17,481 nt of DNA from a virus (taxonomy: Duplodnaviria; Heunggongvirae; Uroviricota; Caudoviricetes), in IMG/VR virus record IMGVR_UViG_2693429555_000018, one strand, 5' to 3'. The notes beneath the pieces were generated by a model. The model was not told the DNA's origin, searched no databases, and saw nothing but the letters and a program-made list of their open reading frames with translations. Shown here one piece after another: positions 1-16,835 of the stretch (position 1 is the first letter of the stretch; every line of letters starts with the position of its first letter). The translations under genes and the position numbers were made by a program.

Positions 1-204
1 ATGAACACCGACACTATTCCTACAAAAGGCTATATCAGACGCTTCCGCCTGGCTGAATTGCTGGGCGTTAGTGTATCCACCATCGACCGTAAAGTAAGAA
101 ACGGTTCACTACCACGTCCGGTAAAGCTGGGAGAAAAAATAACTGCGTTTGATGCGGTTGAGATTCACAACTGGCTGGCAGAACGCCGCGGGAAGGTGGC
201 CTGA
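1..204 (+). CDS. alpA: AlpA-family (phage excisionase-like, MerR-type HTH) regulator
   Basis: 67 aa; ATG at 1, TGA at 202-204 overlapping the next ATG (ATGA). The pattern RFRLAELLGVSVSTIDRKVRNGSLPRPVKLGEKITAFDAVEIHNWL fits the AlpA family signature (hydrophobic-x-G-x-S-x-sT-I, FP-x-PvKlG, E-i-x-x-Wl). Family assigned from memory, not searched. Confidence 0.8.
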   Translation: MNTDTIPTKGYIRRFRLAELLGVSVSTIDRKVRNGSLPRPVKLGEKITAFDAVEIHNWLAERRGKVA

Positions 205-4329: not shown

Positions 4330-4693
4330 AAATGCAGAAATGGCGCTTAGCTCCGCAATCGGAGAGCAGGTGGCAAAGATTGCTGGCGCTGTGTGGATTC
4401 ATAACCTTCATTCTACTAGTGAAGAGAAAATGGCAATTCAGACGCCAGAGGGACGCACCATTACTACATCTCTGAAGCCGTCAGATGTTTGTGATCTGAT
4501 TTGCGCATTCATGTACCCAGCAATGAGGACTGTCCACGGCGATAAGTGGAAACTTGCGACAACCGCTGAATTTGATATGTGGCTAAACAATGATGGCATG
4601 CTGACTGATTACGGAATAACCAAGTGGCAGATGCTGGTTAGCCATATCGCAAACGCTATAGACCACGTGGGGTACGGTGATGCGAAACATTGA
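4322..4693 (+). CDS. hypothetical protein (123 aa)
   Basis: ATG 4322 preceded by GGGAGG; 3' end overlaps the primase start. Confidence 0.6.
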   Translation: MRENAEMALSSAIGEQVAKIAGAVWIHNLHSTSEEKMAIQTPEGRTITTSLKPSDVCDLICAFMYPAMRTVHGDKWKLATTAEFDMWLNNDGMLTDYGITKWQMLVSHIANAIDHVGYGDAKH

Positions 4694-7436
4694 TCTTATC
4701 CGTCAGGTTATCAGTGCGTCTGAAAACAACTGGCCTCATGTGCTGGGCTGCCTGAACATAAATGTCCCTGACTCTCCGCGCCGTCATGCTCCCTGCCCTG
4801 CATGTGGGGGCAAAGATCGATTCCGGTTCGATGACAACGGGCGCGGTAGCTTCATCTGTAATCAGTGCGGCGCTGGTGATGGGCTGGATTTAATTAAACG
4901 CGTAAATAACTGCGACACAACAGAGGCGGCGCTTCTTGCCGCTGATGTTCTGGGTATTGATTACCGGACAACGGAAACACCAGAAGCCACCAGCCAGAAA
5001 CGGGAACAACTGGAAACCGAGCGCCAGCGACGCGAACAGGAGCGCCTGAAAAGGGCAGAGAAGGACGAACAACAAAGACGGGATACGTTTTCCCGTCAGT
5101 TTGATGACATGCGCAGAAAGGCTGTAAACGGCAAATCTGATTATCTGGTTGCGAAAGGGGTAGGTGATTTTACATTCCCCGTGTTGCCCGATGGATCTCT
5201 GTTGCTGGCGCTGGTGGATAAATCCGGCGCAGTAACAGCAGCACAGACTATTACCTCACATGGTGAAAAAAGACTCCTGATAGGTTCAGCAAAGCGGGGG
5301 GCATATCACGCCATAAACGCACCAGAAACAACACAGAGCATCTTAATCGCAGAAGGGCTGGCAACGGCATTATCTGCCCATTTAATGCGTCCAGAGGCGC
5401 TGACAGTGGCGGCGATTGATGCCGGGAACCTGTTATATGTCGCCCAGGTACTGCGGGATAAATTTCCTTCAGCACAAATCATCATTGCTGCGGATAACGA
5501 CCACAGCGAAGGAAGACAAAACACGGGGAGAATAGCAGCAGAAAAAGCAGCTTTATCTGTTTCTGGATGGGTGGCATTACCCCCGACAGATCACAAAGCA
5601 GACTGGAATGATTACCACCAAAAACACGGCATTAAATGCGCCACAGAAGCGTTCAATAAGTCAATGTACCAACCACAGGGTAATGGCGTGAAACAGGAGC
5701 CACAAACCATTGAGGGAAGCGATTTTAAGGTTATGGATACCGACCCACTGAAACCAAGAATAGAAAGCCGCGAGGATGGCATTTATTGGGTATCTCCGAG
5801 AGCTGACAGCCAGAGTGGAGAAATCATCAATAACGAAAGCTGGTTATGTTCTCCGTTAAGCGTTATCGGTACTGGCAGAGACGATAAAGACCAGTATCTC
5901 ATTCTTCGCTGGCTGTCGTTTGGTTCTGAAACGCCGACAACCGCTGCCATTCCACTGGCTGATATTGGTGAACGTGAAGGATGGCGCACACTTAAAGCTG
6001 GTGGGGTAAATGTCACGACCAAAAGCAGCCTCAGAGCAATACTGGCAGACTGGCTACAACGCAGTGGCTCTCGTGAATTGTGGCGTGTTGCTCATGCCAC
6101 TGGCTGGCAATGCGGAGCGTACATCATGCCTGATGGGGAAATCATCGGAACACCTGAAAATCCTGTGCTGTTCAGCGGGAGAAGCTCAGCCGCAGCCGGA
6201 TATACCGTCTCAGGGAGCGCGAAAAGCTGGCGTGATAACGTGGCGCGTCTGGCCTTTGGTAACTATTCAATGATGACCGGGATCGGCGCAGCACTGGCAG
6301 CGCCATTGATTGGGCTGGTGGGCGCTGACGGGTTCGGCATTCATTTCTATGAGCAGTCGAGCGCAGGTAAGACCACCACGGCAAACGTGGCGAGCAGCTT
6401 ATACGGCAACCCTGATTTACTGCGGCTGACGTGGTACGGAACCGCGCTGGGGCTGGCAAATGAAGCCGCCGCCCACAATGACGGACTAATGCCGCTTGAT
6501 GAAGTTGGTCAGGGCGCTGATCCTGTCAGTGTTTCACAGTCTGCCTATGCGTTATTTAACGGTGTAGGGAAACTGCAAGGCGCTAAAGATGGTGGAAACC
6601 GGGATCTAAAACGCTGGCGTACAGTGGCAATCAGCACCGGAGAAATGGATTTAGAAACATTTATCGCTACTTCCGGGCGAAAAACCAAAGCCGGGCAACT
6701 GGTGCGACTGCTGAATATTCCGTTGAGTAAAGCAGTACGCTTTCACGATTACCAGAACGGAAAACAGCACGCAGACGCACTGAAAGACGCTTACCAGCAT
6801 CACCACGGCGCAGCCGGGCGTGAGTGGATTAAATGGCTGGCAGACCACCAGCAACAGGCAATTAAAACTGTTCGTGACTGCGAAAGCAGATGGAGAAGTC
6901 TGATCCCATCCGATTATGGTGAGCAGGTTCACCGTGTAGCCGCGCGATTTGCCATTCTGGAGGCCGCATTGCTGTTAGGCGAGGTTGTAACAGGCTGGGA
7001 TGCTCAGACATGCCGTGATGCGATACAGCACAGCTATAACGCATGGTTGCGCGAGTTCGGCACAGGTAACAAAGAACATCAGCAGATTATTGAACAAACG
7101 GAGGCATTTCTTAATGCCTATGGGCTTAGCCGTTTTGCACCATTTCCATACAGCCCGGCAGATTTGCCCATCAAAGATTTAGCCGGATACCGTCAGCGTG
7201 GAGAACATGACGAAAGCCCAATGATTTTCTACACATTCCCGGCCACATTTGAAAAGGAGATCGCATGTGGTTTCAACGCAAAACAGTTTGCTGAAGTGTT
7301 GAAAAAAGCCGGGATGCTAACCCCACCAAACAGCGGTCGTGGATACCAAAGAAAATCACCACGTATTCAGGGACGACAAATAAACGTTTATGTACTCAAT
7401 TACCAGCCAGGAGATTACAACTCATCTGAAGAATGA
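4680..7436 (+). CDS. P4-alpha-like / PICI-type replication protein: primase (zinc ribbon + TOPRIM) fused to a P-loop helicase-like domain
   Basis: About 918 aa from ATG 4680 (GTG 4677 also possible; GGGG 7 nt upstream). Cys4 zinc ribbon CPACGGKDRFRFDDNGRGSFICNQCG (nt ~4792-4868). TOPRIM-like acidic motifs IAEGLATA (~5347-5370) and AADNDHSEG (~5488-5514). P-loop SSAGKTT (6357-6377). This architecture is established for P4 alpha and satellite Pri-Rep proteins; an iteron cluster follows immediately. Confidence 0.85.
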   Translation: MRNIDLIRQVISASENNWPHVLGCLNINVPDSPRRHAPCPACGGKDRFRFDDNGRGSFICNQCGAGDGLDLIKRVNNCDTTEAALLAADVLGIDYRTTETPEATSQKREQLETERQRREQERLKRAEKDEQQRRDTFSRQFDDMRRKAVNGKSDYLVAKGVGDFTFPVLPDGSLLLALVDKSGAVTAAQTITSHGEKRLLIGSAKRGAYHAINAPETTQSILIAEGLATALSAHLMRPEALTVAAIDAGNLLYVAQVLRDKFPSAQIIIAADNDHSEGRQNTGRIAAEKAALSVSGWVALPPTDHKADWNDYHQKHGIKCATEAFNKSMYQPQGNGVKQEPQTIEGSDFKVMDTDPLKPRIESREDGIYWVSPRADSQSGEIINNESWLCSPLSVIGTGRDDKDQYLILRWLSFGSETPTTAAIPLADIGEREGWRTLKAGGVNVTTKSSLRAILADWLQRSGSRELWRVAHATGWQCGAYIMPDGEIIGTPENPVLFSGRSSAAAGYTVSGSAKSWRDNVARLAFGNYSMMTGIGAALAAPLIGLVGADGFGIHFYEQSSAGKTTTANVASSLYGNPDLLRLTWYGTALGLANEAAAHNDGLMPLDEVGQGADPVSVSQSAYALFNGVGKLQGAKDGGNRDLKRWRTVAISTGEMDLETFIATSGRKTKAGQLVRLLNIPLSKAVRFHDYQNGKQHADALKDAYQHHHGAAGREWIKWLADHQQQAIKTVRDCESRWRSLIPSDYGEQVHRVAARFAILEAALLLGEVVTGWDAQTCRDAIQHSYNAWLREFGTGNKEHQQIIEQTEAFLNAYGLSRFAPFPYSPADLPIKDLAGYRQRGEHDESPMIFYTFPATFEKEIACGFNAKQFAEVLKKAGMLTPPNSGRGYQRKSPRIQGRQINVYVLNYQPGDYNSSEE

Positions 7437-7461: not shown

Positions 7462-7572
7462 GTTGGTTCAGTTGGTTCAGTTGGTTCAATTTGTAAAGAG
7501 TATTGTTTTATAAGAATTTTATTCTTTTTATTGAACCAACACTGAACCAACAGCACGGTATTTTGAACCAAC
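7462..7572. repeat. iteron cluster, candidate origin of replication (ori-like)
   Basis: Three tandem GTTGGTTCA at 7462-7470, 7471-7479 and 7480-7488; a ~43-bp AT-rich spacer; then three inverted copies TGAACCAAC at 7532-7540, 7543-7551 and 7564-7572. Lies directly downstream of the primase stop (7436), the usual ori position in PICI-like elements. Confidence 0.6.
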
Positions 7573-7622
7573 ACAATGTGACTGAATTGATGCGCACAAC
7601 ACCTGGCTGGCATCAGAGAGTG

Positions 7623-7698: not shown

Positions 7699-7893
7699 TT
7701 CAGAAAACAGCCCCTGAGAAGTTGTTATACCTGTTCAGCAAACCATCCGCATAGCTGATCGCGAATCAAATTACCAATGGAGCCAGAAGCAAGGGCAGAA
7801 CTGAAAAGCGCCTGCCGTGAAGAGTAATGCGACACCATAAATATAGTTTTTAGAGTCCATAAAAAACCTGTCAAAACCTGACACACAGAACGA

Positions 7894-7926
7894 TGCCACC
7901 AGCTACTGAGCGGTGGCATTTTTTTG
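7894..7926 (+). terminator. rho-independent terminator
   Basis: Stem TGCCACC (7894-7900) / GGTGGCA (7912-7918), 11-nt loop, followed by a T7 run (7919-7925). Confidence 0.55.
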
Positions 7927-8020
7927 TGCTATCTGTTTCATATTTTGCAATTACGATGATGAATATTGCGATTTGTGAAACTATAATAACTGTTGTTTTA
8001 TACAGTTCTAAGGGGGCGTT

Positions 8021-8182
8021 ATGGCTATTTCAGTAAAGCCGGTATTGATAAGTGAGAAGCAAATGGAAGCGATAAAGAAAATTCAGGAAGAGCAGCGTAA
8101 AAAATCAGGAATTGGAGTAGCGCCAACTCTGCATGAAATTGCACGAGGGTTAATAGATAAGGCGCTGGCAGGCTGTATGTGA
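8021..8182 (+). CDS. small hypothetical protein (53 aa), possibly DNA-binding
   Basis: ATG 8021 preceded by AAGGGGG (8010-8016); product MAISVKPVLISEKQMEAIKKIQEEQRKKSGIGVAPTLHEIARGLIDKALAGCM. Not in the ORF track (under 60 aa). Function is a guess. Confidence 0.4.
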   Translation: MAISVKPVLISEKQMEAIKKIQEEQRKKSGIGVAPTLHEIARGLIDKALAGCM

Positions 8183-8198
8183 AAATGGATGGCATCGC

Positions 8199-8660
8199 AT
8201 GGAACTAAAATTTATTGATAACCCTGTGCGATTACAGGCCTTTCTCAACGAGCCTGGCAATACCGAAAATATTGTTGAGCCGGGGCACACGTACTACATC
8301 AAGCCTGATGCGGTATATCTCGGTATCTACGAAGGATTGGTGCTGGCTGGCGTTCATGAAGTGCGTAACTTCTGGCATAGCATTGTTGAATGCCATGCGG
8401 TGTACGACCCCGGATTCCGTGGTGAATATGCACTGCAAGGGCATCGATTATTCTGCAAATGGCTTCTCGAAAACTCACCATTCCTTAACAGCATTACCAT
8501 GGTTCCTGACACAACGAAATACGGACGGGCAATTATCAGTTTGCTTGGCGCTACCCGTGTTGGTCACCTTGATGATGCTTATATCAGATGTGGTAAACCC
8601 GTCGGCGTAACGCTTTATCAGTTAACTCGGCAACAATATAAGGAATTCAGCGAGTGTTAA
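8199..8660 (+). CDS. phage protein; by position possibly a P22 gp14-like protein
   Basis: 153 aa, protein-like ORF directly upstream of the three coupled putative ejection-protein genes. Assignment rests only on size and synteny with the P22 order 14-7-20-16. Confidence 0.5.
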   Translation: MELKFIDNPVRLQAFLNEPGNTENIVEPGHTYYIKPDAVYLGIYEGLVLAGVHEVRNFWHSIVECHAVYDPGFRGEYALQGHRLFCKWLLENSPFLNSITMVPDTTKYGRAIISLLGATRVGHLDDAYIRCGKPVGVTLYQLTRQQYKEFSEC

Positions 8661-9331
8661 TTACCCATATAGCTCATAAACATCTCAATCGTGCCGTATA
8701 CGAAAAAGGCGGTGATGGTGGTGCCTCTAAAGCTCAGGCGAAGGCCCAGCAGCAGGCAATTGATTTGCAGCGCGAGCAGTGGAATACGGTGATGAATAAT
8801 CTCAAGCCGTATGCAGAAGTCGGATTGCCTGCTTTACAACAACTACAAGGACTGATGACTCTGGAAGGGCAGAATAAAGCCGCGAATGATTTCTTTGGTT
8901 CTGGTTTATATAAAACACAGGCAGATCAGGCCCGTTATCAGAACCTTGTCTCAGCAGAAGCTACCGGGGGGCTTGGCTCAACAGCTACCAGTAACCAGTT
9001 ATCTTCCATTGCGCCCATGCTTTATAACAATTGGCTTAGTGGGCAAATGCAAAATTATGGAAACCTGCTAAATGTCGGGATGAATGCGGCATCAGGGCAG
9101 GCAACAGCAGGGCAAAACTACGCCAATAATACCGGACAACTCTTGCAGGGGCTTGGCGCTATTCGTGCAGGTCAGGCGCAGCAGCCATCCAGTCTTGCGC
9201 GTGGTATTGGTGGGGCGGCATCAGGCGCTTTAGCGGGTGCGCAACTTGGTTCCGTTGTTCCGGGTATAGGTAATGTCGCCGGGGCTATTGGTGGTGGGCT
9301 TATTGGTCTTGTTGGGGGGCTTGGATTCTAA
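8654..9331 (+). CDS. putative phage DNA-ejection (transfer) protein, P22 gp7-like
   Basis: 225 aa; GTG start at 8654 overlapping the upstream stop; Gly-rich hydrophobic C-terminus (GIGGAASGALAGAQLG...GGLIGLVGGLGF). Size and position fit gp7 (~229 aa) in the P22 order 14-7-20-16. Synteny inference, not an alignment. Confidence 0.55.
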   Translation: MLITHIAHKHLNRAVYEKGGDGGASKAQAKAQQQAIDLQREQWNTVMNNLKPYAEVGLPALQQLQGLMTLEGQNKAANDFFGSGLYKTQADQARYQNLVSAEATGGLGSTATSNQLSSIAPMLYNNWLSGQMQNYGNLLNVGMNAASGQATAGQNYANNTGQLLQGLGAIRAGQAQQPSSLARGIGGAASGALAGAQLGSVVPGIGNVAGAIGGGLIGLVGGLGF

Positions 9332-10752
9332 TGGCGACATGGCAACTTGGCGGGCTGCCTAGCATGGTACCGCAAAATGATAATGCTCCTCGTTCTTCCG
9401 TTCCTCAGCCTGTGCAGTTTCAGCAGCAGCCAAACGTAGGTTTAATGGCGCTACAGGGGCTAAGAGGCGTTGCTGAGATTAATCAGCAGGCACGTCAACA
9501 ACAGCGTAAAGCAGAGTTTCAGAAAGCATATGCCGGGGCTTTTGAGTCTGGAGACAGAAACAAAATGCGCAGTCTTATTTCTGAGTATCCAGAAGAATTT
9601 GAAAGCGTTCAGAAAGGGATGGGCTTTATTGATGACGACCAGAGAAATTCTATTGGTCATCTTGCGACTAGTGCTCAAATCGCATCTTCGCTCGGAACTG
9701 GGGCATTTGGAAAATTCATAGCAGATAACGAAGATGAAATGCGTCGCTTGGGAATTTCTCCTGAGTCTGTTGCCGAAATGCATGTTAATGATCCACAGGA
9801 ATTCCAGCGGCTTGCTGGTAGTATGGCACTGTTTTCTCTCGGTCATGAGAAGTACTTCGATATCAAAGATCGAATGGAAGGTCGGGATATTGAGCGTGGC
9901 AAGTTGGCAGAGACAATCCGCAGCAATCAGGCTGGAGAGGCGCTTCAGGCGAGAGGGCAGGATATTAGCCGAGCAAATGCGTTAACGTCAGCATATGCAC
10001 CAACAGCCGCAATGCAGAATTACAATCAGTACGCGCAAATGTTAAAGGCGGATCCAGAGGGGGCAGCGGCATTTGCGGCAGCGGCTGGAATTAATACAAA
10101 CGCCAAAAAATTAATGAGTGTTAGGGAAAACGATGATGGCACTGTCACAAAATACTACACAGACGGAAGTGAAGAGCAGGGAAAACTAAACCAGCCAATA
10201 TCTGGAGATGGGTTTCGTCCAATAGCTTTGCCAACAGCCCAAAAGATCATGGAAAAGTCGCCAGAAGGGGCTAAAAAAGCTGCTGGATTTGCATACAGAG
10301 TTAGGGATGCTCTTGATTCAATGGATACACTGAAAGGCCAGCTTAGCCCACAGCGAGTGGCGATCATTAATAATGCTTTGGGTAATGGGACGCTGGCTAA
10401 CTTAACGCTCAGCCCAACAGAGCAGCAATACGTTGTTAATGCTAATGACGCAATAATGGCAATACTCCGTCAGGAAACAGGGGCAGCTATCGTACCTGCT
10501 GAAATGTCAAAATATTATCAAATGTATTTCCCTCAGCCTGGCGACTCCACAAAAACCATTGATACCAAGCGCCGGAAGATGGAAAACCAGTTCAATTCGC
10601 TGAAAGCTGCTTCTGGTCGAGCTTATGATGCTTTGCGTGTTATTTCAGCAGTTGACAGAGGAACTTCTTCTTCGTCGCAGACATTGCCGCAATCTGAGCA
10701 GGTATCACAGCCAGCAGCCAGCAGTAATTTTTCTTCACTATGGGGTGATTAA
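9331..10752 (+). CDS. putative phage DNA-ejection protein, P22 gp20-like
   Basis: 473 aa; TAATG overlap with the upstream gene. Size matches P22 gp20 (~471 aa) and the position matches. Confidence 0.6.
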   Translation: MATWQLGGLPSMVPQNDNAPRSSVPQPVQFQQQPNVGLMALQGLRGVAEINQQARQQQRKAEFQKAYAGAFESGDRNKMRSLISEYPEEFESVQKGMGFIDDDQRNSIGHLATSAQIASSLGTGAFGKFIADNEDEMRRLGISPESVAEMHVNDPQEFQRLAGSMALFSLGHEKYFDIKDRMEGRDIERGKLAETIRSNQAGEALQARGQDISRANALTSAYAPTAAMQNYNQYAQMLKADPEGAAAFAAAAGINTNAKKLMSVRENDDGTVTKYYTDGSEEQGKLNQPISGDGFRPIALPTAQKIMEKSPEGAKKAAGFAYRVRDALDSMDTLKGQLSPQRVAIINNALGNGTLANLTLSPTEQQYVVNANDAIMAILRQETGAAIVPAEMSKYYQMYFPQPGDSTKTIDTKRRKMENQFNSLKAASGRAYDALRVISAVDRGTSSSSQTLPQSEQVSQPAASSNFSSLWGD

Positions 10753-12857
10753 TGGCTAAAGCATGGAAAGATGTTATCGCCTCTCCACAGTATCAGGCGT
10801 TAGCACCAGAACAAAAAGTGCAGGCTCAGGAGCAATACTTCAATGAAGTCGTGGCCCCGCAAGCCGGAGAAAGTGTAGAGCAGGCTAAGCAGGCTTTTTA
10901 TGCTGCCTATCCACTACCATCTACGAATGAAATAGACCGCTCCCAATCAGCAACTCAAAATATTCAACATACATCATCTGATAATTCTCTTGCGTCAGGG
11001 TATGCAAAGTTAGCTACTCAGCAAAGAGAGGGGCTTGAGCGTTCAGCAGAACAGGGAGCCAGTCTTGGGACTGCGATGCGCGATGCTATAACAGGCGAAA
11101 GCCGAATGACTCCAGAGATGGAGAGACTGCAAAATGTCGCCTCTGCCCCAGAATTGAACTCACTAAGCATGGATGCCCTGAAGGCTGGATGGTCTCAACT
11201 TTTCGGCTCTGACGCGTCTCAGGAAAAGATTCTTCAGGGCATGGGGGCGACATTAAGGCAGGATGAGAAGGGGAATACTATCGTTTCTCTGCCATCAGGT
11301 GATTATGCCCTGAACAAGCCGGGTTTATCACCGCAAGACCTGACTTCGTTTCTGGCTAATGCGCTGGCGTTTACACCAGCGGGCAGGGCTGGAACGGTGC
11401 TTGGTGCCATAGGAAAATCAGCAGCTACAGATTTAGCACTACAGGGAGCCACCAGCAAGGCTGGTGGAGAAGATATTGATCCGTTACAAACGGTAATTTC
11501 TGCTGGCATTGGTGGTATTGGTAAGGGGCTGGAAAATACAGCGAGTGCGGTTTCGAGGGCTGTTCGTGGTGATATGTCGCCTGAAGCAAAGGCTGCTGTC
11601 GACTTTGCATCGGAAAGAAATCTGCCGTTAATGACCAGTGACATGCTGAAAGATAAAACCTTTATGCAGAGTCAGGCTCAGACATTAGGCGAAAGAGTTC
11701 CTTTTTTTGGAACCGGTAAGAATCGGCTGAATCAACAACAAGCACGAGAAAATTTAGTCAGAACATTTAGCGATGGTCTGGGTGGCATTTCTGATAAACA
11801 GCTTTATGAATCTGCGACTAAAGGGCAACAAAAATTCATTGAGGCAGCAGGAAAGCGATATAACCGCATAATTGACGCTATGGGGGATACCCCTGTCGAT
11901 CTCTCAAACACGGTAAAAACTATCGACAATCAGATTGCCGTGTTAAGCCGCCCTGGCAAATCTCAGGATAGAGCCGCGGTAAAAGTCTTGCAGCAATTTA
12001 AAGACGATATCACCAGCGGACCAAATGACCTGCGTCTGGCGAGGGAAAACAGAACCGATCTTCGAAAGCGATTTATAGCGTCATCTGACACTGTTGATAA
12101 AGATACGCTCCAGAAAGCCAGCGATATTATCTACAAGGCATATACGGCGGATATGAAAAAAGCCGTAGCCAAAAATCTTGGAGCAGACGAAGCCATTAAT
12201 ATGGCAAGGGTTGATCGCTCATGGTCTAAATTCAATGACATGATGGGAAGAACGCGCGTTCAAAAGGCAATAGCCAGCGGCAAGGCCACGCCTGAGGATG
12301 TAACAAAACTCGTTTTTAGCCAAAGCCCATCAGAACGTTCTCAGCTTTACAGGCTTCTGGATGACAATGGTAGGCAAAACGCACGAGCAGCTATAGTTCA
12401 GAATGCTGTAGATAAGGCGACTGATCCGTCTGGAAATATCAGTGTTGAGAAGTTTATTAATGCGTTACACCGGAACAGGAAGCAATCAGCAACTTTCTTT
12501 AAAGGCGTACATGGAAAGGAACTGGACGGCGTTATTAAATACCTCAACGATACAAGACACGCGGCAAAAGCGAACGTTCAAAACTTAAATGGTCAGCAGC
12601 TTTATGGATTGTTAGTTGGTGGTGGCATCATAAACGCAGCAGTATTGGCGGGGATGCTAAAAACGGCTGCGTTTGTTGTTCCTGCTGCTGGTGCCGTAGG
12701 CGGAGCAGCGAAGGCATACGAAAGCCCTGTTATACGAAATGCCTTGTTACGTCTGGCAAATACGCCAAAAGGTAGCACAGCATATGACAGAGCGATCAGT
12801 ACGGTCACACAATCGCTCACCAGAGTCGCACAGGCATCACAAAAAGAAGCTCAATAA
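10752..12857 (+). CDS. putative phage DNA-ejection protein, P22 gp16-like
   Basis: 701 aa; TAATG overlap with the upstream gene; hydrophobic, Gly/Ala-rich C-terminal region (GLLVGGGIINAAVLAGMLKTAAFVVPAAGAVGGAAKAY). Third gene of the coupled trio, in the gp16 position; followed by a terminator. Confidence 0.6.
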   Translation: MAKAWKDVIASPQYQALAPEQKVQAQEQYFNEVVAPQAGESVEQAKQAFYAAYPLPSTNEIDRSQSATQNIQHTSSDNSLASGYAKLATQQREGLERSAEQGASLGTAMRDAITGESRMTPEMERLQNVASAPELNSLSMDALKAGWSQLFGSDASQEKILQGMGATLRQDEKGNTIVSLPSGDYALNKPGLSPQDLTSFLANALAFTPAGRAGTVLGAIGKSAATDLALQGATSKAGGEDIDPLQTVISAGIGGIGKGLENTASAVSRAVRGDMSPEAKAAVDFASERNLPLMTSDMLKDKTFMQSQAQTLGERVPFFGTGKNRLNQQQARENLVRTFSDGLGGISDKQLYESATKGQQKFIEAAGKRYNRIIDAMGDTPVDLSNTVKTIDNQIAVLSRPGKSQDRAAVKVLQQFKDDITSGPNDLRLARENRTDLRKRFIASSDTVDKDTLQKASDIIYKAYTADMKKAVAKNLGADEAINMARVDRSWSKFNDMMGRTRVQKAIASGKATPEDVTKLVFSQSPSERSQLYRLLDDNGRQNARAAIVQNAVDKATDPSGNISVEKFINALHRNRKQSATFFKGVHGKELDGVIKYLNDTRHAAKANVQNLNGQQLYGLLVGGGIINAAVLAGMLKTAAFVVPAAGAVGGAAKAYESPVIRNALLRLANTPKGSTAYDRAISTVTQSLTRVAQASQKEAQ

Positions 12858-12860
12858 CTG

Positions 12861-12885
12861 GTTAGCCACGGATGGCTAATTTTTG
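12861..12885 (+). terminator. rho-independent terminator after the gp16-like gene
   Basis: Stem TTAGCCA (12862-12868) / TGGCTAA (12873-12879), loop CGGA, then TTTTTG (12880-12885). Overlaps the 3' end of the convergent membrane-protein gene. Confidence 0.45.
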
Positions 12886-13352
12886 TTCTTTGCTCTCATC
12901 CACAGGTAAAGAAGGGCAAGAACAAGACAAAAAACAGAGAATAGATGACCTACCTCATATGGTGCGCCAAAAAAATTAGCTATTGATACGGGCAAAAAAG
13001 CTGAAGCGATCAAAATTGAAAGGCAAAAAATAAGCCCAGTAATATAGTTTATTAAATTCTTAAATGAGAAATGTTTTGCTTGATTTACGGTCTTAGCGAA
13101 TGATCGCTTAACGACGGATAAAAGCAAATAGATGGCGACAGTTGCTAATGCCCCTTTCCACCAGTCTGGATATAGTTTTGCGACAATCAGACCAAGGAAA
13201 ACCATGATGACAGCCTGAGCATTCACACCAACCCTCCCTTTAGCGTTGTTTAGAATGGCAATCATCATATATCCAAGACATGGCATTTGGTACATAGCTT
13301 GGGTCGGGATTTCAAATCCGATCCCCGTTGATGGGGCCGTTACAGTACGCAC
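12876..13352 (-). CDS. small integral membrane protein in the P22 SieA position (candidate superinfection-exclusion protein)
   Basis: Minus-strand ORF convergent with the gp16-like gene, as sieA is in P22. Strongly hydrophobic, multi-helix product (…MMIAILNNAKGRVGVNAQAVIMVFLGLIVAKLYPDWW…LLYLWMRAKNKN). Start uncertain: 13352 is GTG; in-frame ATGs at 13295, 13286 and 13268 are alternatives. Confidence 0.5.
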   Translation of the reverse strand: MRTVTAPSTGIGFEIPTQAMYQMPCLGYMMIAILNNAKGRVGVNAQAVIMVFLGLIVAKLYPDWWKGALATVAIYLLLSVVKRSFAKTVNQAKHFSFKNLINYITGLIFCLSILIASAFLPVSIANFFGAPYEVGHLFSVFCLVLALLYLWMRAKNKN

Positions 13353-14259
13353 ATATCCGCTTTATGTGAAACAGGAAGATTTTTCTGATATCACTGCCAC
13401 AGCAAAACACCAATTTCGAGACAAGTACGCGTGCGAGGGGTATCAGTTGCAAAAAATTTTGCAACTACGTCCGACCAGTATGCACACGATGGCGGGGGGA
13501 TACCATAAAACTGTTCTCTACATGAGACAGAGTGGTGGTGATGTGTTGATTATCGGCGTATATGCGCACAGGACGCGCTATGACGATGTTTTATGCGGGT
13601 ACACCAATCACATGTATCTGGTGTGATAAATCGCGTTACATGACCTCTTATGTTGTGCTGGTGGTTATCACGACGTTCTGAATCTGGCCTTTGCCTGGTA
13701 TTTTGCGACAAGTACGCGCGCGTAGCATCGAAATAATCGGATGGCGTATACTGCTGGTAATATGAAGACCGATAGCATTAACCGAAAGGAGAAAGACTTC
13801 TCGATAACGGCAAGGGGGCTGAATTGCGAGGCGAGATTAAGCAACTGTCTTGAACGTAAAAATCATGGAGCAACATGATGGTACGATTCATTCCATTCTT
13901 CGTTCTTTCTGAGCATTGCGTTCAGGCTTAGTCAAAATTAGTGTTGCGAGCGGACCTATTAGTAATTGTTGGTGCGATGCGCCTGTTATGGATTGTTATG
14001 GTTGTGGCAGGCCTGATTAATATCCAGTATGACCACCAGCTATGAGAGGCCACCTCAGTGGTTCGCAGTTGCAGGTTTGCACTCAGGTTCGCAGGGTTTT
14101 GGCTACTTTCACGTGCGAACCTGCAGAATTGCAAAGGACAACTAAGTCCTCTGGCCAACTCCCGGTTTATGAGCGACACAGTCCGCCTGGCGCATCGTTT
14201 TCGTCGAGTGCGCCCATCAGCTTGTCCATGGACTATCCACCACTCGATATTAAAGCTAA

Positions 14260-14445
14260 TCATTGGTTGCCAGCCCGCGAATCAAGTTTGTTCTGGATCC
14301 AAGCTTCAACCTCCTCAAGCGACCATCTAGCTGATCTACCAATTTTAACTGGCTGTGGAAACGTGCCCGTCTTAACCCATGAGTAGATTGCCGTTTTCTT
14401 GAAGCCCGTTCTGAGCATGACTTCGCTTAATTTGATAAGGCGCAT
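14260..14445 (-). CDS. alpA: AlpA-family regulator (second copy, opposite orientation)
   Basis: 61 aa; MRLIKLSEVMLRTGFKKTAIYSWVKTGTFPQPVKIGRSARWSLEEVEAWI is a textbook AlpA-family pattern. AGGAG-type SD upstream on the minus strand. Confidence 0.75.
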   Translation of the reverse strand: MRLIKLSEVMLRTGFKKTAIYSWVKTGTFPQPVKIGRSARWSLEEVEAWIQNKLDSRAGNQ

Positions 14446-14494
14446 AGAGGCTCCTCTGCTTTAGATTAAGCATAGTGACAATCTGGCTTTGGGC

Positions 14495-14529
14495 GGTATC
14501 CAAAAGCGAGGTATCCATGTTGGTATCCA
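14495..14529. promoter_or_regulatory. three GGTATCCA direct repeats in the alpA (-) upstream region
   Basis: GGTATCCA at 14495-14502, 14510-14517 and 14522-14529, 50-85 bp upstream of the minus-strand alpA start and inside the divergent intergenic region. Confidence 0.45.
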
Positions 14530-14697
14530 CCAAAACGCTGTTTACCAAAAAAGTTACCACCGGAACAGGACATTTTGAGCTGTAACTTAACACATAGCAT
14601 ATGGAGTTCACGCATAGACTTCACGCACAACGGCTCCGGCCAGTGAAGAATCACCCTGGCTGGCAATATAATGCCGATCACCATCAGAGGGGAATCC

Positions 14698-14889
14698 ATG
14701 ACACCACGAGAAATCGAGCTGCTGACCATCGCCAAGCTGGAGCATGACGGCCACCAGCTCAGCCCGGCAGAACTGCGGGAATTAAGGCGCCAGCTGGCAG
14801 AGGGCCCTGTAATAGCCAGGCGGCACCGCGAAATGATGACCAGCCACGCATATCGCTGGAGCAAACCAGCGCCGCTCCGTGCGCGGTGA
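14698..14889 (+). CDS. small hypothetical protein (63 aa)
   Basis: ATG 14698 preceded by AGAGGGG (5-nt spacing); MTPREIELLTIAKLEHDGHQLSPAELRELRRQLAEG... Divergent from alpA (-). The track start at 14671 lacks an RBS. Confidence 0.4.
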   Translation: MTPREIELLTIAKLEHDGHQLSPAELRELRRQLAEGPVIARRHREMMTSHAYRWSKPAPLRAR

Positions 14890-14963
14890 GCAGCACCTAA
14901 CCAGCACTAGACAAGCCCTGTGCTGGTGGATGTCCCTCATAATTAGCGGTTTTTAAACGGCGT

Positions 14964-15084
14964 GTTGGTTCACGGCCTCTTTTTGTTGGTTCAAAAATGG
15001 GGTGTGTTGGTTCACATTTTGCGAATAATCCTTTTAAAAACAATACTCTTTACAAATTGAACCAACTGAACCAACTGAACCAAC
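14964..15084. repeat. second iteron cluster, an inverted copy of the 7462-7572 ori-like region
   Basis: GTTGGTTCA at 14964-14972, 14985-14993 and 15006-15014; AT-rich spacer; three tandem TGAACCAAC at 15058-15066, 15067-15075 and 15076-15084. Bases 15037-15084 are the exact reverse complement of 7462-7510 (about 48 bp). Confidence 0.6.
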
Positions 15085-15120
15085 ACCTTTTTGCTTATCT
15101 ATATAGTCTGAGAGGCAGAA

Positions 15121-15408
15121 ATGATAAGGGACAGGAAAGCTGAAGAGCTGGAGTTAAAAGGGCTATGCCGGAGAGCTGCCACACGATGGGCAGAAGTCAT
15201 GACGCTGGCAGATGGCGATAAAGAACGTGAACATGCAGCAAACAGACGCTCTGAATATATCCGTAGGGCGGCACGCCCACCAGCAACTACAGACAGATTC
15301 GGAGACTTAAGACAGGCAGTTAAGCGAACGCATTCAGCTCTTGGTATGGATGAGGAAGCGAGAGGGTACTTCAGGCGTTATCGCGATAAAGATTGCCAGC
15401 TACGATAA
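15121..15408 (+). CDS. hypothetical basic protein (95 aa)
   Basis: ATG 15121 preceded by GAGAGG (15110-15115); Arg-rich product. No recognised motif. Confidence 0.5.
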   Translation: MIRDRKAEELELKGLCRRAATRWAEVMTLADGDKEREHAANRRSEYIRRAARPPATTDRFGDLRQAVKRTHSALGMDEEARGYFRRYRDKDCQLR

Positions 15409-15577
15409 AGCAAAGGAGGTGTCTTACTACAATGACCAAGCAAAACTGTCGTTGCTTTCGCATAGCATCAGCTAAAAGATCAAGACACCCAACATCGCAT
15501 TAATAAGTATAATCAATTTGCTTCTTTCAACATTTGCTATAGAGTTTTTGAACCTTAATGGTTTATGAGCATCTATA

Positions 15578-16342
15578 ATGACTACAACGGTATATGATCG
15601 TGTTAACGCCTTAGTAGCGACCGACTCTAGGTGGTCTGTTGATCTTAGCCCACATGGCTACGATGGTCATATCCTGTATATTGACGACACCGGCTTCGGT
15701 AAGCTAGCTCCACGAAATGATTTTGTTATGCTTTTAGCCGGTGATGGTCTTTTGATTCAGTTATGGAAGCATTGGTGGCGAGGAGACCTATCTCAACAAG
15801 AACCACCAGTTGTTTTACCTACTGGTCAATCGGTAAATTTACATATTGTGAAAAAATCAACTAATGAAGTGATTTTTGATAAAGGTCAAAAATTAGTTGT
15901 AAAAAATAACGAAACGGAAGAACTGTTCGCTGTCTTTACAGGCTCAGGATGCGGTGCTGCTGCGCAAAACTGGATGTATAGCCATTGCGCAAGATCAGCA
16001 ATTGAAGAATCTAAAAAGCTTGACCCATACACTGGCGGCACTGTACGTTTTTTAGACTTCAGGACTAACGCATCATTAGTAGAAGACTCTGTTTCAACCA
16101 TTAGCGAAGTAAACGAAGCTCTATTGCAGAGGGGGCTGATTATGGATACCAAAAACCCACATTCACCACACGTTTCTATCAGTGCACAAGAAGTTGCTGA
16201 AGTTCGTCAAATGCTGGTTAGTGGTTCAATTACCCCATGTGCACCAGTAGGCCAAAGAACCCAAGATTGGGATGACAACTCCAAATTGCGTTTAGCAAAT
16301 GCTATTCAGCGTATTCGTGAAGAAGAAGCACAAATGCGATAA
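15578..16342 (+). CDS. Ntn-hydrolase-like protein with HslV / proteasome-beta-type motifs
   Basis: 254 aa, visibly AT-richer than its neighbours. N-terminus MTTTV… (Thr after the initiator Met, as in HslV MTTIV… and archaeal beta TTTVG…). ALVATDSRWS resembles the proteasome-beta GVIVAADSRAT block (Asp17 region). LFAVFTGSGCGAAAQ resembles HslV LIAIGSGGPYAQAA. An ~80-aa C-terminal extension is present. Followed by a strong terminator. Confidence 0.6.
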   Translation: MTTTVYDRVNALVATDSRWSVDLSPHGYDGHILYIDDTGFGKLAPRNDFVMLLAGDGLLIQLWKHWWRGDLSQQEPPVVLPTGQSVNLHIVKKSTNEVIFDKGQKLVVKNNETEELFAVFTGSGCGAAAQNWMYSHCARSAIEESKKLDPYTGGTVRFLDFRTNASLVEDSVSTISEVNEALLQRGLIMDTKNPHSPHVSISAQEVAEVRQMLVSGSITPCAPVGQRTQDWDDNSKLRLANAIQRIREEEAQMR

Positions 16343-16360
16343 ATGGAATAAGTAAGCCTA

Positions 16361-16391
16361 AAAAGCTGCCTATCATACAGGCAGCTTTTTA
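16361..16391 (+). terminator. rho-independent terminator of the Ntn-hydrolase-like gene
   Basis: Stem AGCTGCCT (16364-16371) / AGGCAGCT (16379-16386), then TTTT (16387-16390), 19 bp after the stop codon. Confidence 0.6.
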
Positions 16392-16694
16392 GTCCGTTTC
16401 CCCATTCTATGTAAATACACTTCCTAAAAATAGCGATTAACTTACCTCTCACAATCAATTTCACGAGCAATACGCGTGCGCAGTACAACAAGCCTGAACA
16501 GGGTTACACACCTCGATCGTGAGCGATGTAGACAATGGCTTTTGACCAAAGCACCAGAAAAAACCGTGTACATAAGGGTGTACATAATCAAAAAAATCAT
16601 TAGAAAGAAATCAGCCACAATGCGGCATTGAAGCCAATACTCTACAAACAGATTCAGACTCGTAACACTAATTCTTACTTTTCAGCCTTCACAA

Positions 16695-16815: not shown

Positions 16816-16835
16816 AACTGTATATAAATACAGTT
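16816..16835. promoter_or_regulatory. LexA (SOS) box of dinD
   Basis: AACTGTATATAAATACAGTT, with the CTGT-N8-ACAG core at 16818-16833, about 44 bp upstream of the dinD start and overlapping a TATAAAT -10-like element. Matches the canonical LexA consensus and, as I recall, the published dinD SOS box. Confidence 0.85.

Follow-up and report, generated by a model that had tools for sequence, protein, structure and literature searches.

Introduction

Why should a small mobile element that has no portal, coat or terminase gene carry the proteins through which P22-like phages eject their DNA into a cell? The question is raised by IMG/VR virus record IMGVR_UViG_2693429555_000018 (Caudoviricetes), a stretch of 17,481 nucleotides (nt) that was analysed as a whole and is referred to here as the window. 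Between positions 8,021 and 13,352 it holds what an original prediction, made from the letters alone, had described as a module of P22-like ejection proteins followed by a membrane protein in the position of sieA, the whole set in a satellite-like element. That prediction saw the module either as a prophage remnant or as cargo kept for a function such as superinfection exclusion. We are highly confident of three things taken together: that the P22-type ejection-protein cassette is genuine, that its host element is a phage-inducible chromosomal island (PICI) of the EcCIMP1 family, and that the module is conserved and selected in these islands rather than left over from a prophage. On balance, and with much less assurance, we also favour the view that the ejection proteins are incorporated into the particles of a P22-like helper phage, so that island DNA would be delivered through a conduit encoded partly or wholly by the satellite.

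EcCIMP1, an island of Escherichia coli MP1, is excised only in the presence of the P22-like phage Kapi1, and excision needs AlpA and the integrase (Pick, Stadel and Raivio, ISME J 2025; PMC11773190). In that work the genes of the module were labelled 'DNA transfer' or DUF2824 and a packaging role was proposed for them, not that of an ejection cassette (PMC11773190).

Results

The module comprises four + strand genes at 8199-8660 (153 residues), 8654-9331 (225 residues, GTG start), 9331-10752 (473 residues) and 10752-12857 (701 residues), as had been read from the table of open reading frames (ORFs), and all of these ORFs are intact. Their families, at first assigned by synteny and size only, are now supported by homology to gp14, gp7, gp20 and gp16 in Pfam, PHROG and BLASTP comparisons. 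The first gene encodes a gp14 homologue (DUF2824; Pfam PF11039, 6e-61; phrog_651, 4e-66) that is 83% identical to gp14 of Kapi1, the phage shown to serve the sister island as helper, and 23% identical to that of P22. The second encodes a homologue of the ejection protein gp7 (PF25688 P22_gp7, 1.9e-72; 57% identical to Kapi1 gp7), the third a homologue of gp20, the periplasm-spanning ejection protein (Inj_translocase, PF16928, 1.6e-58; phrog_917 over its full length, 1e-111), and the fourth a homologue of gp16, the inner-membrane ejection protein (phrog_770 'DNA transfer protein', 3e-161; 67-68% identical to phage N7). Against P22 itself, BLASTP returned an E value of 1e-7 for gp14, 56% identity for gp7 (E 4e-53), 38% over the N-terminal half of gp20 (E 7e-45) and 30% for gp16 (E 6e-52). 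Pfam found no SLT domain in the window's gp16, though a PHROG labelled 'transglycosylase' matches it. PHROG files gp14 under head morphogenesis; the P22 protein takes part in assembling the virion and is not known to be one of its components.

In the P22 record the order is 14-7-20-16, with a convergent sieA 22 nt further on, and the products have 151, 229, 471, 609 and 164 residues. The order and the three larger sizes were thus correctly anticipated, whereas the expected gp14 of about 170 residues was slightly off. The window's genes all overlap, gp14 and gp7 by 7 nt and the pairs gp7/gp20 and gp20/gp16 by 1 nt, each of the latter sharing TAATG. Translational coupling of the last three genes therefore stands as predicted, but not its restriction to them, since gp14 and gp7 overlap as well.

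No portal, coat, terminase, gp4, gp10 or gp26 was found by tblastn of the islands, and virion-related matches in the island are confined to the ejection module, with no full structural or lysis gene set. The description of a satellite-like element, with portal, coat, terminase and tail genes all missing ahead of the module, is therefore upheld. The module lies downstream of a primase, an origin and a terminator, unlike a late virion-assembly operon, and prophages with the same gp16 do have the genes from portal to tail. The cluster had been thought to begin directly after the origin and terminator. The primase, iterons and terminator are indeed upstream, but the operon is headed by a conserved gene of 53 residues (8021-8182, +) with a promoter region of its own. 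The ratio of non-synonymous to synonymous substitution rates (dN/dS) of this leader gene is 0.13, and its product is modelled with an extended N-terminus and two helices (AlphaFold pLDDT 85.6); it has no significant match in PDB, Pfam or PHROG.

The host element is represented in many complete genomes. About 129 complete E. coli genomes, strains D8 and 042 among these, match the window over at least 80% of its length, and the window is most of a PICI of about 19 kb integrated between yicC and dinD. In D8 the order runs from a tyrosine integrase, which lies just beyond the window edge, through a 281-residue protein, AlpA, a 143-residue protein, AntA, DUF4222, Ash and six small ORFs to a TOPRIM/DUF927 primase, the module, a second AlpA-like gene (alpA_1), a PerC-like gene and a 254-residue protein. 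This is the layout of a PICI, with integrase, AlpA and a primase with adjacent origin in order, a length of about 10-20 kb and attachment (att) repeats at the ends. Kinship with EcCIMP1 (MP1, locus L010) is close. AlpA, the 143-residue protein, AntA, DUF4222, Ash, small ORFs, the TOPRIM/DUF927 primase, the 53-residue gene, gp14 and gp7 follow one another in the same order, and the 53-residue gene, gp14, gp7 and the backbone are 98-100% identical (gp14 and gp7 98-99%). The 53-residue protein and alpA_1 share RefSeq accessions in D8 and MP1, and both islands have the PerC-like gene. EcCIMP1 measures 19.96 kb against 19.0 kb here. It differs in its integrase and att site (tRNA-Thr there, yicC/dinD here) and in having a 439-residue gp20, a 906-residue gp16 with an SLT domain, and a lipoprotein-like gene in place of the convergent membrane protein.

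Homologous islands carry the module consistently. We inspected eleven E. coli islands (D8, CU39ES-1, O26 RM10386, G5, NC101, MP1, E1620, MB10, F5656C1, UTME-14 and UPEC129), and ejection genes stand directly after the 53-residue gene in every one of them. Between them the eleven use different integrases at two att sites, yicC/dinD and a tRNA-Thr gene neighbouring proA, and two primase families (TOPRIM/DUF927 and DUF5906). Their modules fall into two classes, gp14+gp7+gp20+gp16 or gp20+gp16 only. In P22-like phages gp16 and gp20 need to be a matched pair while gp7 is interchangeable, a rule that the islands with gp20 and gp16 only fit, and foreign sets of ejection proteins assemble into P22 virions and function there (PMC10883804). 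The alleles of gp20 and gp16 vary by island: in the window gp20 is distinct and gp16 is of the N7 type (68%), E1620 has Kapi1-type proteins (75% and 41%), and EcCIMP1 has a third type, with the SLT domain. Among island copies of the 53-residue gene, gp14, gp7, gp20 and gp16, dN/dS is 0.06-0.30, with dS up to 0.49. In a survey of 5426 complete E. coli genomes the primase was present in 361, the primase together with the module in 249, and the promoter with the 53-residue gene in 497 (about 9%).

The same position in the island is occupied in other genera too. A scan for the primase, with one genome per species, returned 77 loci with the same backbone, mostly from Enterobacterales. A homologue of the 53-residue gene lies downstream of the primase in 31 of the 77, and in 26 of these 31 it is followed immediately by DNA-delivery genes. 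These encode tape-measure proteins preceded by a 108-residue gene product, one cluster of which accounts for 11 loci (phrog_1538, E 1.5e-152); a second tape-measure type (phrog_2854); podovirus lytic-tail, internal-virion or tail-injection transglycosylase proteins, with a full internal-virion set (phrog_418, SLT protein, phrog_3003, phrog_684) at one Leclercia locus; a baseplate hub (Pfam E217_GP41); and, in Escherichia sp. and Leclercia, ejection proteins of the P22 type. Solitary tape-measure genes, a podovirus internal-virion set or a hub stand directly behind the 53-residue gene in islands of Enterobacter, Klebsiella, Pantoea, Erwinia, Leclercia, Rosenbergiella and other genera (L012-L073, for example L014 9654-12983, L047 14192-21651 and L027 15380-16420). 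Where there is a tape measure, the genes that come next are small, and none gave a tail-related match. As judged by these homologies, the slot holds DNA-delivery components specifically, which is hard to square with debris or arbitrary cargo.

The 130 nt before the 53-residue gene have an architecture that is conserved in the 31 loci and in the window. An operator-like inverted repeat (7935..7981; GTTTCATATTTTGCAAT - 13 nt - ATTGCGATTTGTGAAAC, with 17-bp arms complementary at 13 of 17 positions) abuts a predicted promoter on the + strand, which consists of a -10 hexamer TATAAT (7982-7987) without a good -35 and, three bases after the hexamer, a LexA-box-like CTGT-N8-ACAG (CTGTTGTTTTATACAG, 7990-8005). 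The half-sites TTTCAT, TGCAAT, ATTGC and TGAAA are kept in the 31 related loci, which come from many genera, and the region 7935-8005, which occurs once in the island, does not vary among 10 of the 11 E. coli islands, UPEC129 being the exception. The pattern CTGT-N8-ACAG occurs twice in the 17.5-kb window, where 0.21 occurrences would be expected by chance, and the other copy is upstream of the SOS gene dinD. We infer that the ejection operon is probably under LexA control, a control that may not be universal in the family. At a guess only, the 53-residue protein could be a ribbon-helix-helix autoregulator that binds the palindrome.

Two further observations concern this region. The copy at dinD is a canonical SOS box (CTGTATATAAATACAG, 16818-16833) just outside the right att repeat and serves as an internal positive control; the island is inserted next to an SOS-regulated gene. 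In UPEC129 (L091, about 4644-6530) an ISEc53 transposase and a clbS-like gene sit in the promoter, where the LexA-like box is cut and the operator removed.

Judging from patterns of identity, the island and P22-like phages swap these genes, and gp16 together with the membrane protein is a phage unit. P22-like prophages in IMG/VR have portal, coat, gp4, gp10, gp26, gp14, gp7, gp20 and gp16 in order, with a gp16 94% identical to that of the window. Nucleotide identity to such prophages is 93.4% over 10980-13233, and the homology ends at 13233. gp20 is a mosaic: its N-terminal half shares 35-41% identity with the alleles of phages, the stretch from its 3' part across the gp16 junction (9874-10922) is 92-93% identical in nucleotides to several E. 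coli P22-like phages, and Sf6-like E. coli phages match short segments at 92-96% nucleotide identity. The closest gp16 in deposited phage genomes is that of phage N7 (67%), and Kapi1 shares with the module only about 0.6 kb at 81% nucleotide identity. One metagenome contig, L095 (IMGVR_UViG_3300045988_004969), combines head and tail genes of the P22-like kind with a segment that is 99% identical to 10690-14464, a match that runs 1.2 kb past the membrane-protein gene; the contig is either a very close phage relative or a chimeric assembly. As a metagenome assembly that could be chimeric at the conserved gp20/gp16 junction, it was not relied on.

Convergent with gp16 is a gene for a small membrane protein (12876..13226, -) with three to four hydrophobic helices, in the sieA position and a candidate injection-exclusion protein. 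Its longest ORF reaches 13352 (158 residues). The protein most likely starts at GTG 13226 and has 116 residues, because a strong Shine-Dalgarno sequence (AAGGGAGGG) precedes this codon, homologues have 109-130 residues, and the prophage homology ends at 13233; conservation within the family, which is small and confined to Enterobacterales, likewise begins near GTG 13226. A hairpin terminator (12860..12881) lies between the convergent genes and overlaps the membrane protein's stop codon. The two stop codons are separated by 18 nt; in P22 the distance from gene 16 to sieA is 22 nt. The same membrane protein, 83-88% identical, is convergent after gene 16 in real P22-like prophages of IMG/VR; tblastn against deposited phage genomes gave no match, and it was found only in the IMG/VR prophages.

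The prediction that this gene takes the place of sieA holds as to position and is not supported as to homology. SieA was considered as its relative and rejected: BLASTP gave E 0.58, hhalign a probability of 0.1% and phrog_7745 no match, and the motif FxRYPxEAxxFNK is absent. In the island of O26 RM10386, however, the same position holds a real, 204-residue SieA homologue (E 8e-8 to P22 SieA, motif RYPGEA, SieA PHROG match). This satellite-borne gene is at L003 18678-19292, and others are at L089 10360-10974 and in L097. In the F5656C1 island the sieA position holds a 204-residue protein, in E1620 a different membrane protein of 118 residues, and in EcCIMP1 the lipoprotein-like gene, on the same strand. 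The position after gp16 is thus a hot spot for envelope proteins. According to Leavitt et al. (mBio 2024; PMC10883804), all sieA genes that they examined are located in P22-like prophages, a rule from which the island-borne sieA of O26 departs. The targets through which SieA stops DNA injection are gp20 and gp16 (PMC10883804), and EcCIMP1 adds superinfection immunity against Kapi1, no known defence system having been found (PMC11773190). Because SieA acts on these proteins and this extra immunity is unexplained, an exclusion role is the most economical reading of the position; for the window's own protein, it is suggested by analogy.

Several other features complete the element. An AlpA-family regulator is encoded at 1..204 (+; Pfam Phage_AlpA, 2e-8), and AlpA is the master activator in EcCIMP1 (PMC11773190). 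The left neighbour of the module is a primase-helicase with zinc ribbon, TOPRIM and DUF927 (4677..7436, +; Pfam DUF927 3.5e-47, Toprim_3 7e-15, Zn_Ribbon_Prim 3e-15; phrog_1139 DNA primase 6e-178). A repeat search placed next to it a putative replication origin (7462..7574), with three copies of GTTGGTTCA (7462-7494), an A+T-rich spacer and three copies of the inverted repeat TGAACCAAC (7531-7574); it is taken as the likely origin from this iteron architecture adjoining the primase. An intrinsic terminator (7893..7926, +; stem ATGCCACC / GGTGGCAT, followed by T7), found by terminator scan and in the sequence, would end the replication operon, and most related loci have a terminator in the equivalent place. 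Downstream of the module, alpA_1 (14260..14418, -; Pfam Phage_AlpA, 2e-9) encodes an AlpA/excisionase-like protein annotated as WP_049066248.1 in both D8 and MP1, and alpA_1 helps Kapi1 excision (PMC11773190). The right attachment repeat is at 16565..16588 (CGTGTACATAAGGGTGTACATAAT), its left copy lying beyond the window, upstream of the integrase; in L001 an imperfect direct repeat of 24 nt at 9607-9630 and 28565-28588 bounds about 19.0 kb.

The right arm (13353-16560) holds the alpA_1-like gene, the PerC-like gene (15121-15408) and the 254-residue protein (15578-16342; weak PHROG match). It is a variable cargo region, in which sister islands hold AbiD or ImmA/IrrE genes. A PADLOC scan of island cargo found no defence system in the window, and AbiD only in sister islands. 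A small-terminase or pac function was also considered and rejected, as the two AlpA-like proteins gave only faint matches, at the level of their helix-turn-helix, to a small-terminase PHROG. In the left arm, Rfam identified isrK (2031-2108, +, 69 bits) and a C4 antisense RNA (2171-2258, +, 81 bits) in tandem, inside the ORF of the 'ash family protein' (1650-2717); in MP1 the annotation has an Icd-like protein at this place. The pair suggests an RNA immunity region of the P1/P4 type, and the call of a 355-residue ash ORF may be partly spurious.

Discussion

P22 and the window share the four families, their order and their close packing, and in both a convergent gene for a small multi-pass membrane protein comes about 20 nt further on. 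The window differs in that portal, coat, terminase, tail needle and tailspike are missing, in that a promoter of its own and a 53-residue leader follow the primase and origin, in that its membrane protein shows no homology to SieA, and in that gp14, gp20 and gp16 are only 23-38% identical to those of P22. The closest functional parallel comes from the phage-inducible chromosomal island-like elements (PLEs) of Vibrio, in all of which tape measure, tail assembly chaperone and baseplate hub are genes of the satellite itself; the tape-measure set enters PLE virions selectively and is needed for transfer, and the authors knew of no other satellite that encodes a tape measure (bioRxiv 10.1101/2025.01.29.635557). 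A mycobacterial satellite class with a tape measure was described after that report. In both cases the satellite supplies the DNA-delivery core together with an assembly-type gene (gp14 here, the chaperone in PLE) and takes the rest from a helper, and relatives of the present family have tape measures and a hub in the very same slot. PLE11 adds to the set a factor, Rta, whose target is the helper's counterpart of the protein. The two systems differ in that element family, host and helper (a myovirus for PLE) are unrelated, and in that virion incorporation and the need for it in transfer are experimental findings there and predictions here.

Other satellites resemble the island in organisation. 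Operon I of the Staphylococcus aureus pathogenicity islands (SaPIs), a packaging and interference module, is LexA-controlled (Ubeda et al. 2007, cited in PMC5052747). Like the present one, it is a virion-directed PICI operon downstream of the replication module; its SOS/LexA control would have a parallel here in the LexA-like box that overlaps the start of the ejection operon. It holds a small terminase and capsid-size genes, as opposed to ejection proteins here. With P4-like satellites the island shares Ash, AlpA, a large primase, a tyrosine integrase and a C4/CI-type antisense RNA with isrK in the left arm, but no homologue of Psu, Delta or Sid was found among the ORFs scanned, and the helper would be a P22-like podovirus, not P2.

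We envisage the following course of events. A P22-like helper prophage would be induced, and SOS is likely to be the signal for the island too, because its operon promoter carries a LexA-like box. The island would excise and replicate from its own origin with AlpA, integrase and primase, and would express its own ejection proteins, which would be built into helper procapsids. Particles holding island DNA would then deliver it through a conduit of satellite proteins, as chimeric virions that would be the short-tailed counterpart of the Vibrio PLE tape measure. The convergent membrane protein would function in the resident cell, where it would probably block injection by incoming P22-like phages as SieA does. 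The island might benefit in several ways. It might escape SieA-type exclusion in recipient cells: the type of ejection protein sets the sensitivity to SieA, and the HK620 set partly escapes it (PMC10883804). It might be guaranteed a matched gp20/gp16 pair with any helper, or gp16 might have a role after entry.

A number of observations weigh against parts of this picture. Transduction of EcCIMP1 by Kapi1 is very low, at about 5e3 per ml, and alpA was induced only with the helper present (PMC11773190). The LexA-like box scores 19.2 bits, at about the 99.9th percentile of the background, a figure that is indicative only as the matrix was built from remembered LexA boxes; in many relatives with tape-measure-type modules the LexA half-sites are one base closer and the score is lower. 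A sigma-70 scan upstream of the operon found no promoter at the thresholds used, and the promoter is called solely from the perfect, conserved -10 hexamer. In 3 of the 11 islands gp16 or gp20 is truncated or disrupted by an insertion sequence; the module is therefore dispensable for carriage, and single lineages can lose it. The low dN/dS could be partly inherited from phages if alleles were re-acquired repeatedly. gp16 is 94-99% identical to prophage alleles, and with near-identical gp16 in some phages, being different from the helper is not a general rule. As for the membrane protein, it has no homology to any characterised exclusion protein, and its dN/dS is about 0.8-1.1, on 7-9 substitutions only.

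How, then, do other explanations fare? The first of the two originally offered, that the segment from gene 14 to the sieA position is debris from a P22-like prophage, brought into the island by recombination and without function there, draws on the 93% nucleotide identity to P22-like prophages over 10980-13233, the metagenome phage contig with 99% over 10690-14464, the mosaic patches 92-96% identical to Sf6-like phages, and the disrupted gp16 or gp20 of three islands. Debris would hardly be expected, however, to keep the same place, 53-residue gene and promoter across differing integrases, att sites and primases, to retain intact, overlapping ORFs with dN/dS of 0.06-0.3, or to arrive with no other phage gene; nor would random debris produce a slot that in other genera is filled with other, analogous DNA-delivery genes. 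We therefore regard a mere remnant as very improbable. Much of the same evidence bears on the idea that the segment is bait, supplying identity for recombination with the helper, after which a headful phage would package the island in a cointegrate. Rare transfer, the lack of any terminase or pac function found in the family (PMC11773190) and the long stretches 93-99% identical in nucleotides to P22-like phages would all agree with it. Identity alone would not call for purifying selection at the protein level, which also acts on alleles absent from sequenced phages (such as the gp20 N-terminal half, at 35-41%), for a conserved leader gene and regulated promoter, or for a slot that across genera takes DNA-delivery genes only and not arbitrary phage DNA. 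Moreover, the tested helper Kapi1 shares only the 0.6 kb at 81% with the module, and the chances of this explanation are slim.

The second original suggestion was cargo for exclusion. Here the ejection proteins would defend the resident cell, either by blocking the injection conduit of superinfecting P22-like phages or by poisoning helper progeny through mismatched gp16 and gp20. Lysogens of Kapi1 do become more immune to this phage when they have EcCIMP1, and no known defence system was found to account for it (PMC11773190); P22 hybrids in which only gp16 or only gp20 is foreign are non-infectious, which means that a mixed set can act as a dominant negative (PMC10883804). EcCIMP1 nevertheless makes no difference to the titre of Kapi1 after induction (PMC11773190). 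The islands also retain gp14, which would be superfluous for a decoy in the cytoplasm or membrane, and the terminator, operator and LexA-like box point to induced rather than constitutive expression. The adjacent envelope protein, whether SieA-like, the 116-residue protein or a lipoprotein, is the more economical candidate for exclusion and fits that function better than the ejection cargo. Defence by the ejection proteins themselves is thus unlikely in our view, and their incorporation into helper particles remains the reading that we favour.

A wider generalisation can be put forward tentatively, and we would not yet wager on it. In an Enterobacterales lineage of PICIs, one SOS-wired slot, made up of terminator, operator, -10, LexA-like box and 53-residue gene, might take up whatever DNA-delivery apparatus suits the helper and so replace the helper's injection conduit; in E. 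coli it would be paired with an injection-blocking envelope protein, as an offence-defence pair. If this were true, chimeric virions would be a general satellite strategy and not a peculiarity of Vibrio PLEs. The EcCIMP1 island family and a satellite-encoded tape measure have been published already, and in the literature searched on satellites with ejection proteins we found nothing beyond EcCIMP1. Relative to that literature, a P22 ejection cassette carried by a satellite is new, as are the SOS-type promoter of this cassette, its association with envelope genes in the sieA position and the DNA-delivery slot shared across genera.

To conclude, satellites are known to remodel capsids, to redirect packaging and, as recently described for Vibrio PLEs, to swap the tape measure. 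If the ejection proteins of these islands do enter helper particles, control of DNA injection would join these as a general satellite strategy. This would bear on who transduces into whom, including entry into lysogens protected by SieA-type proteins, and the adjacent membrane protein would be a concrete candidate for the unexplained superinfection immunity conferred by EcCIMP1. It would also place SieA-type genes outside P22-like prophages, in the satellites that may travel in the particles of P22-like phages.

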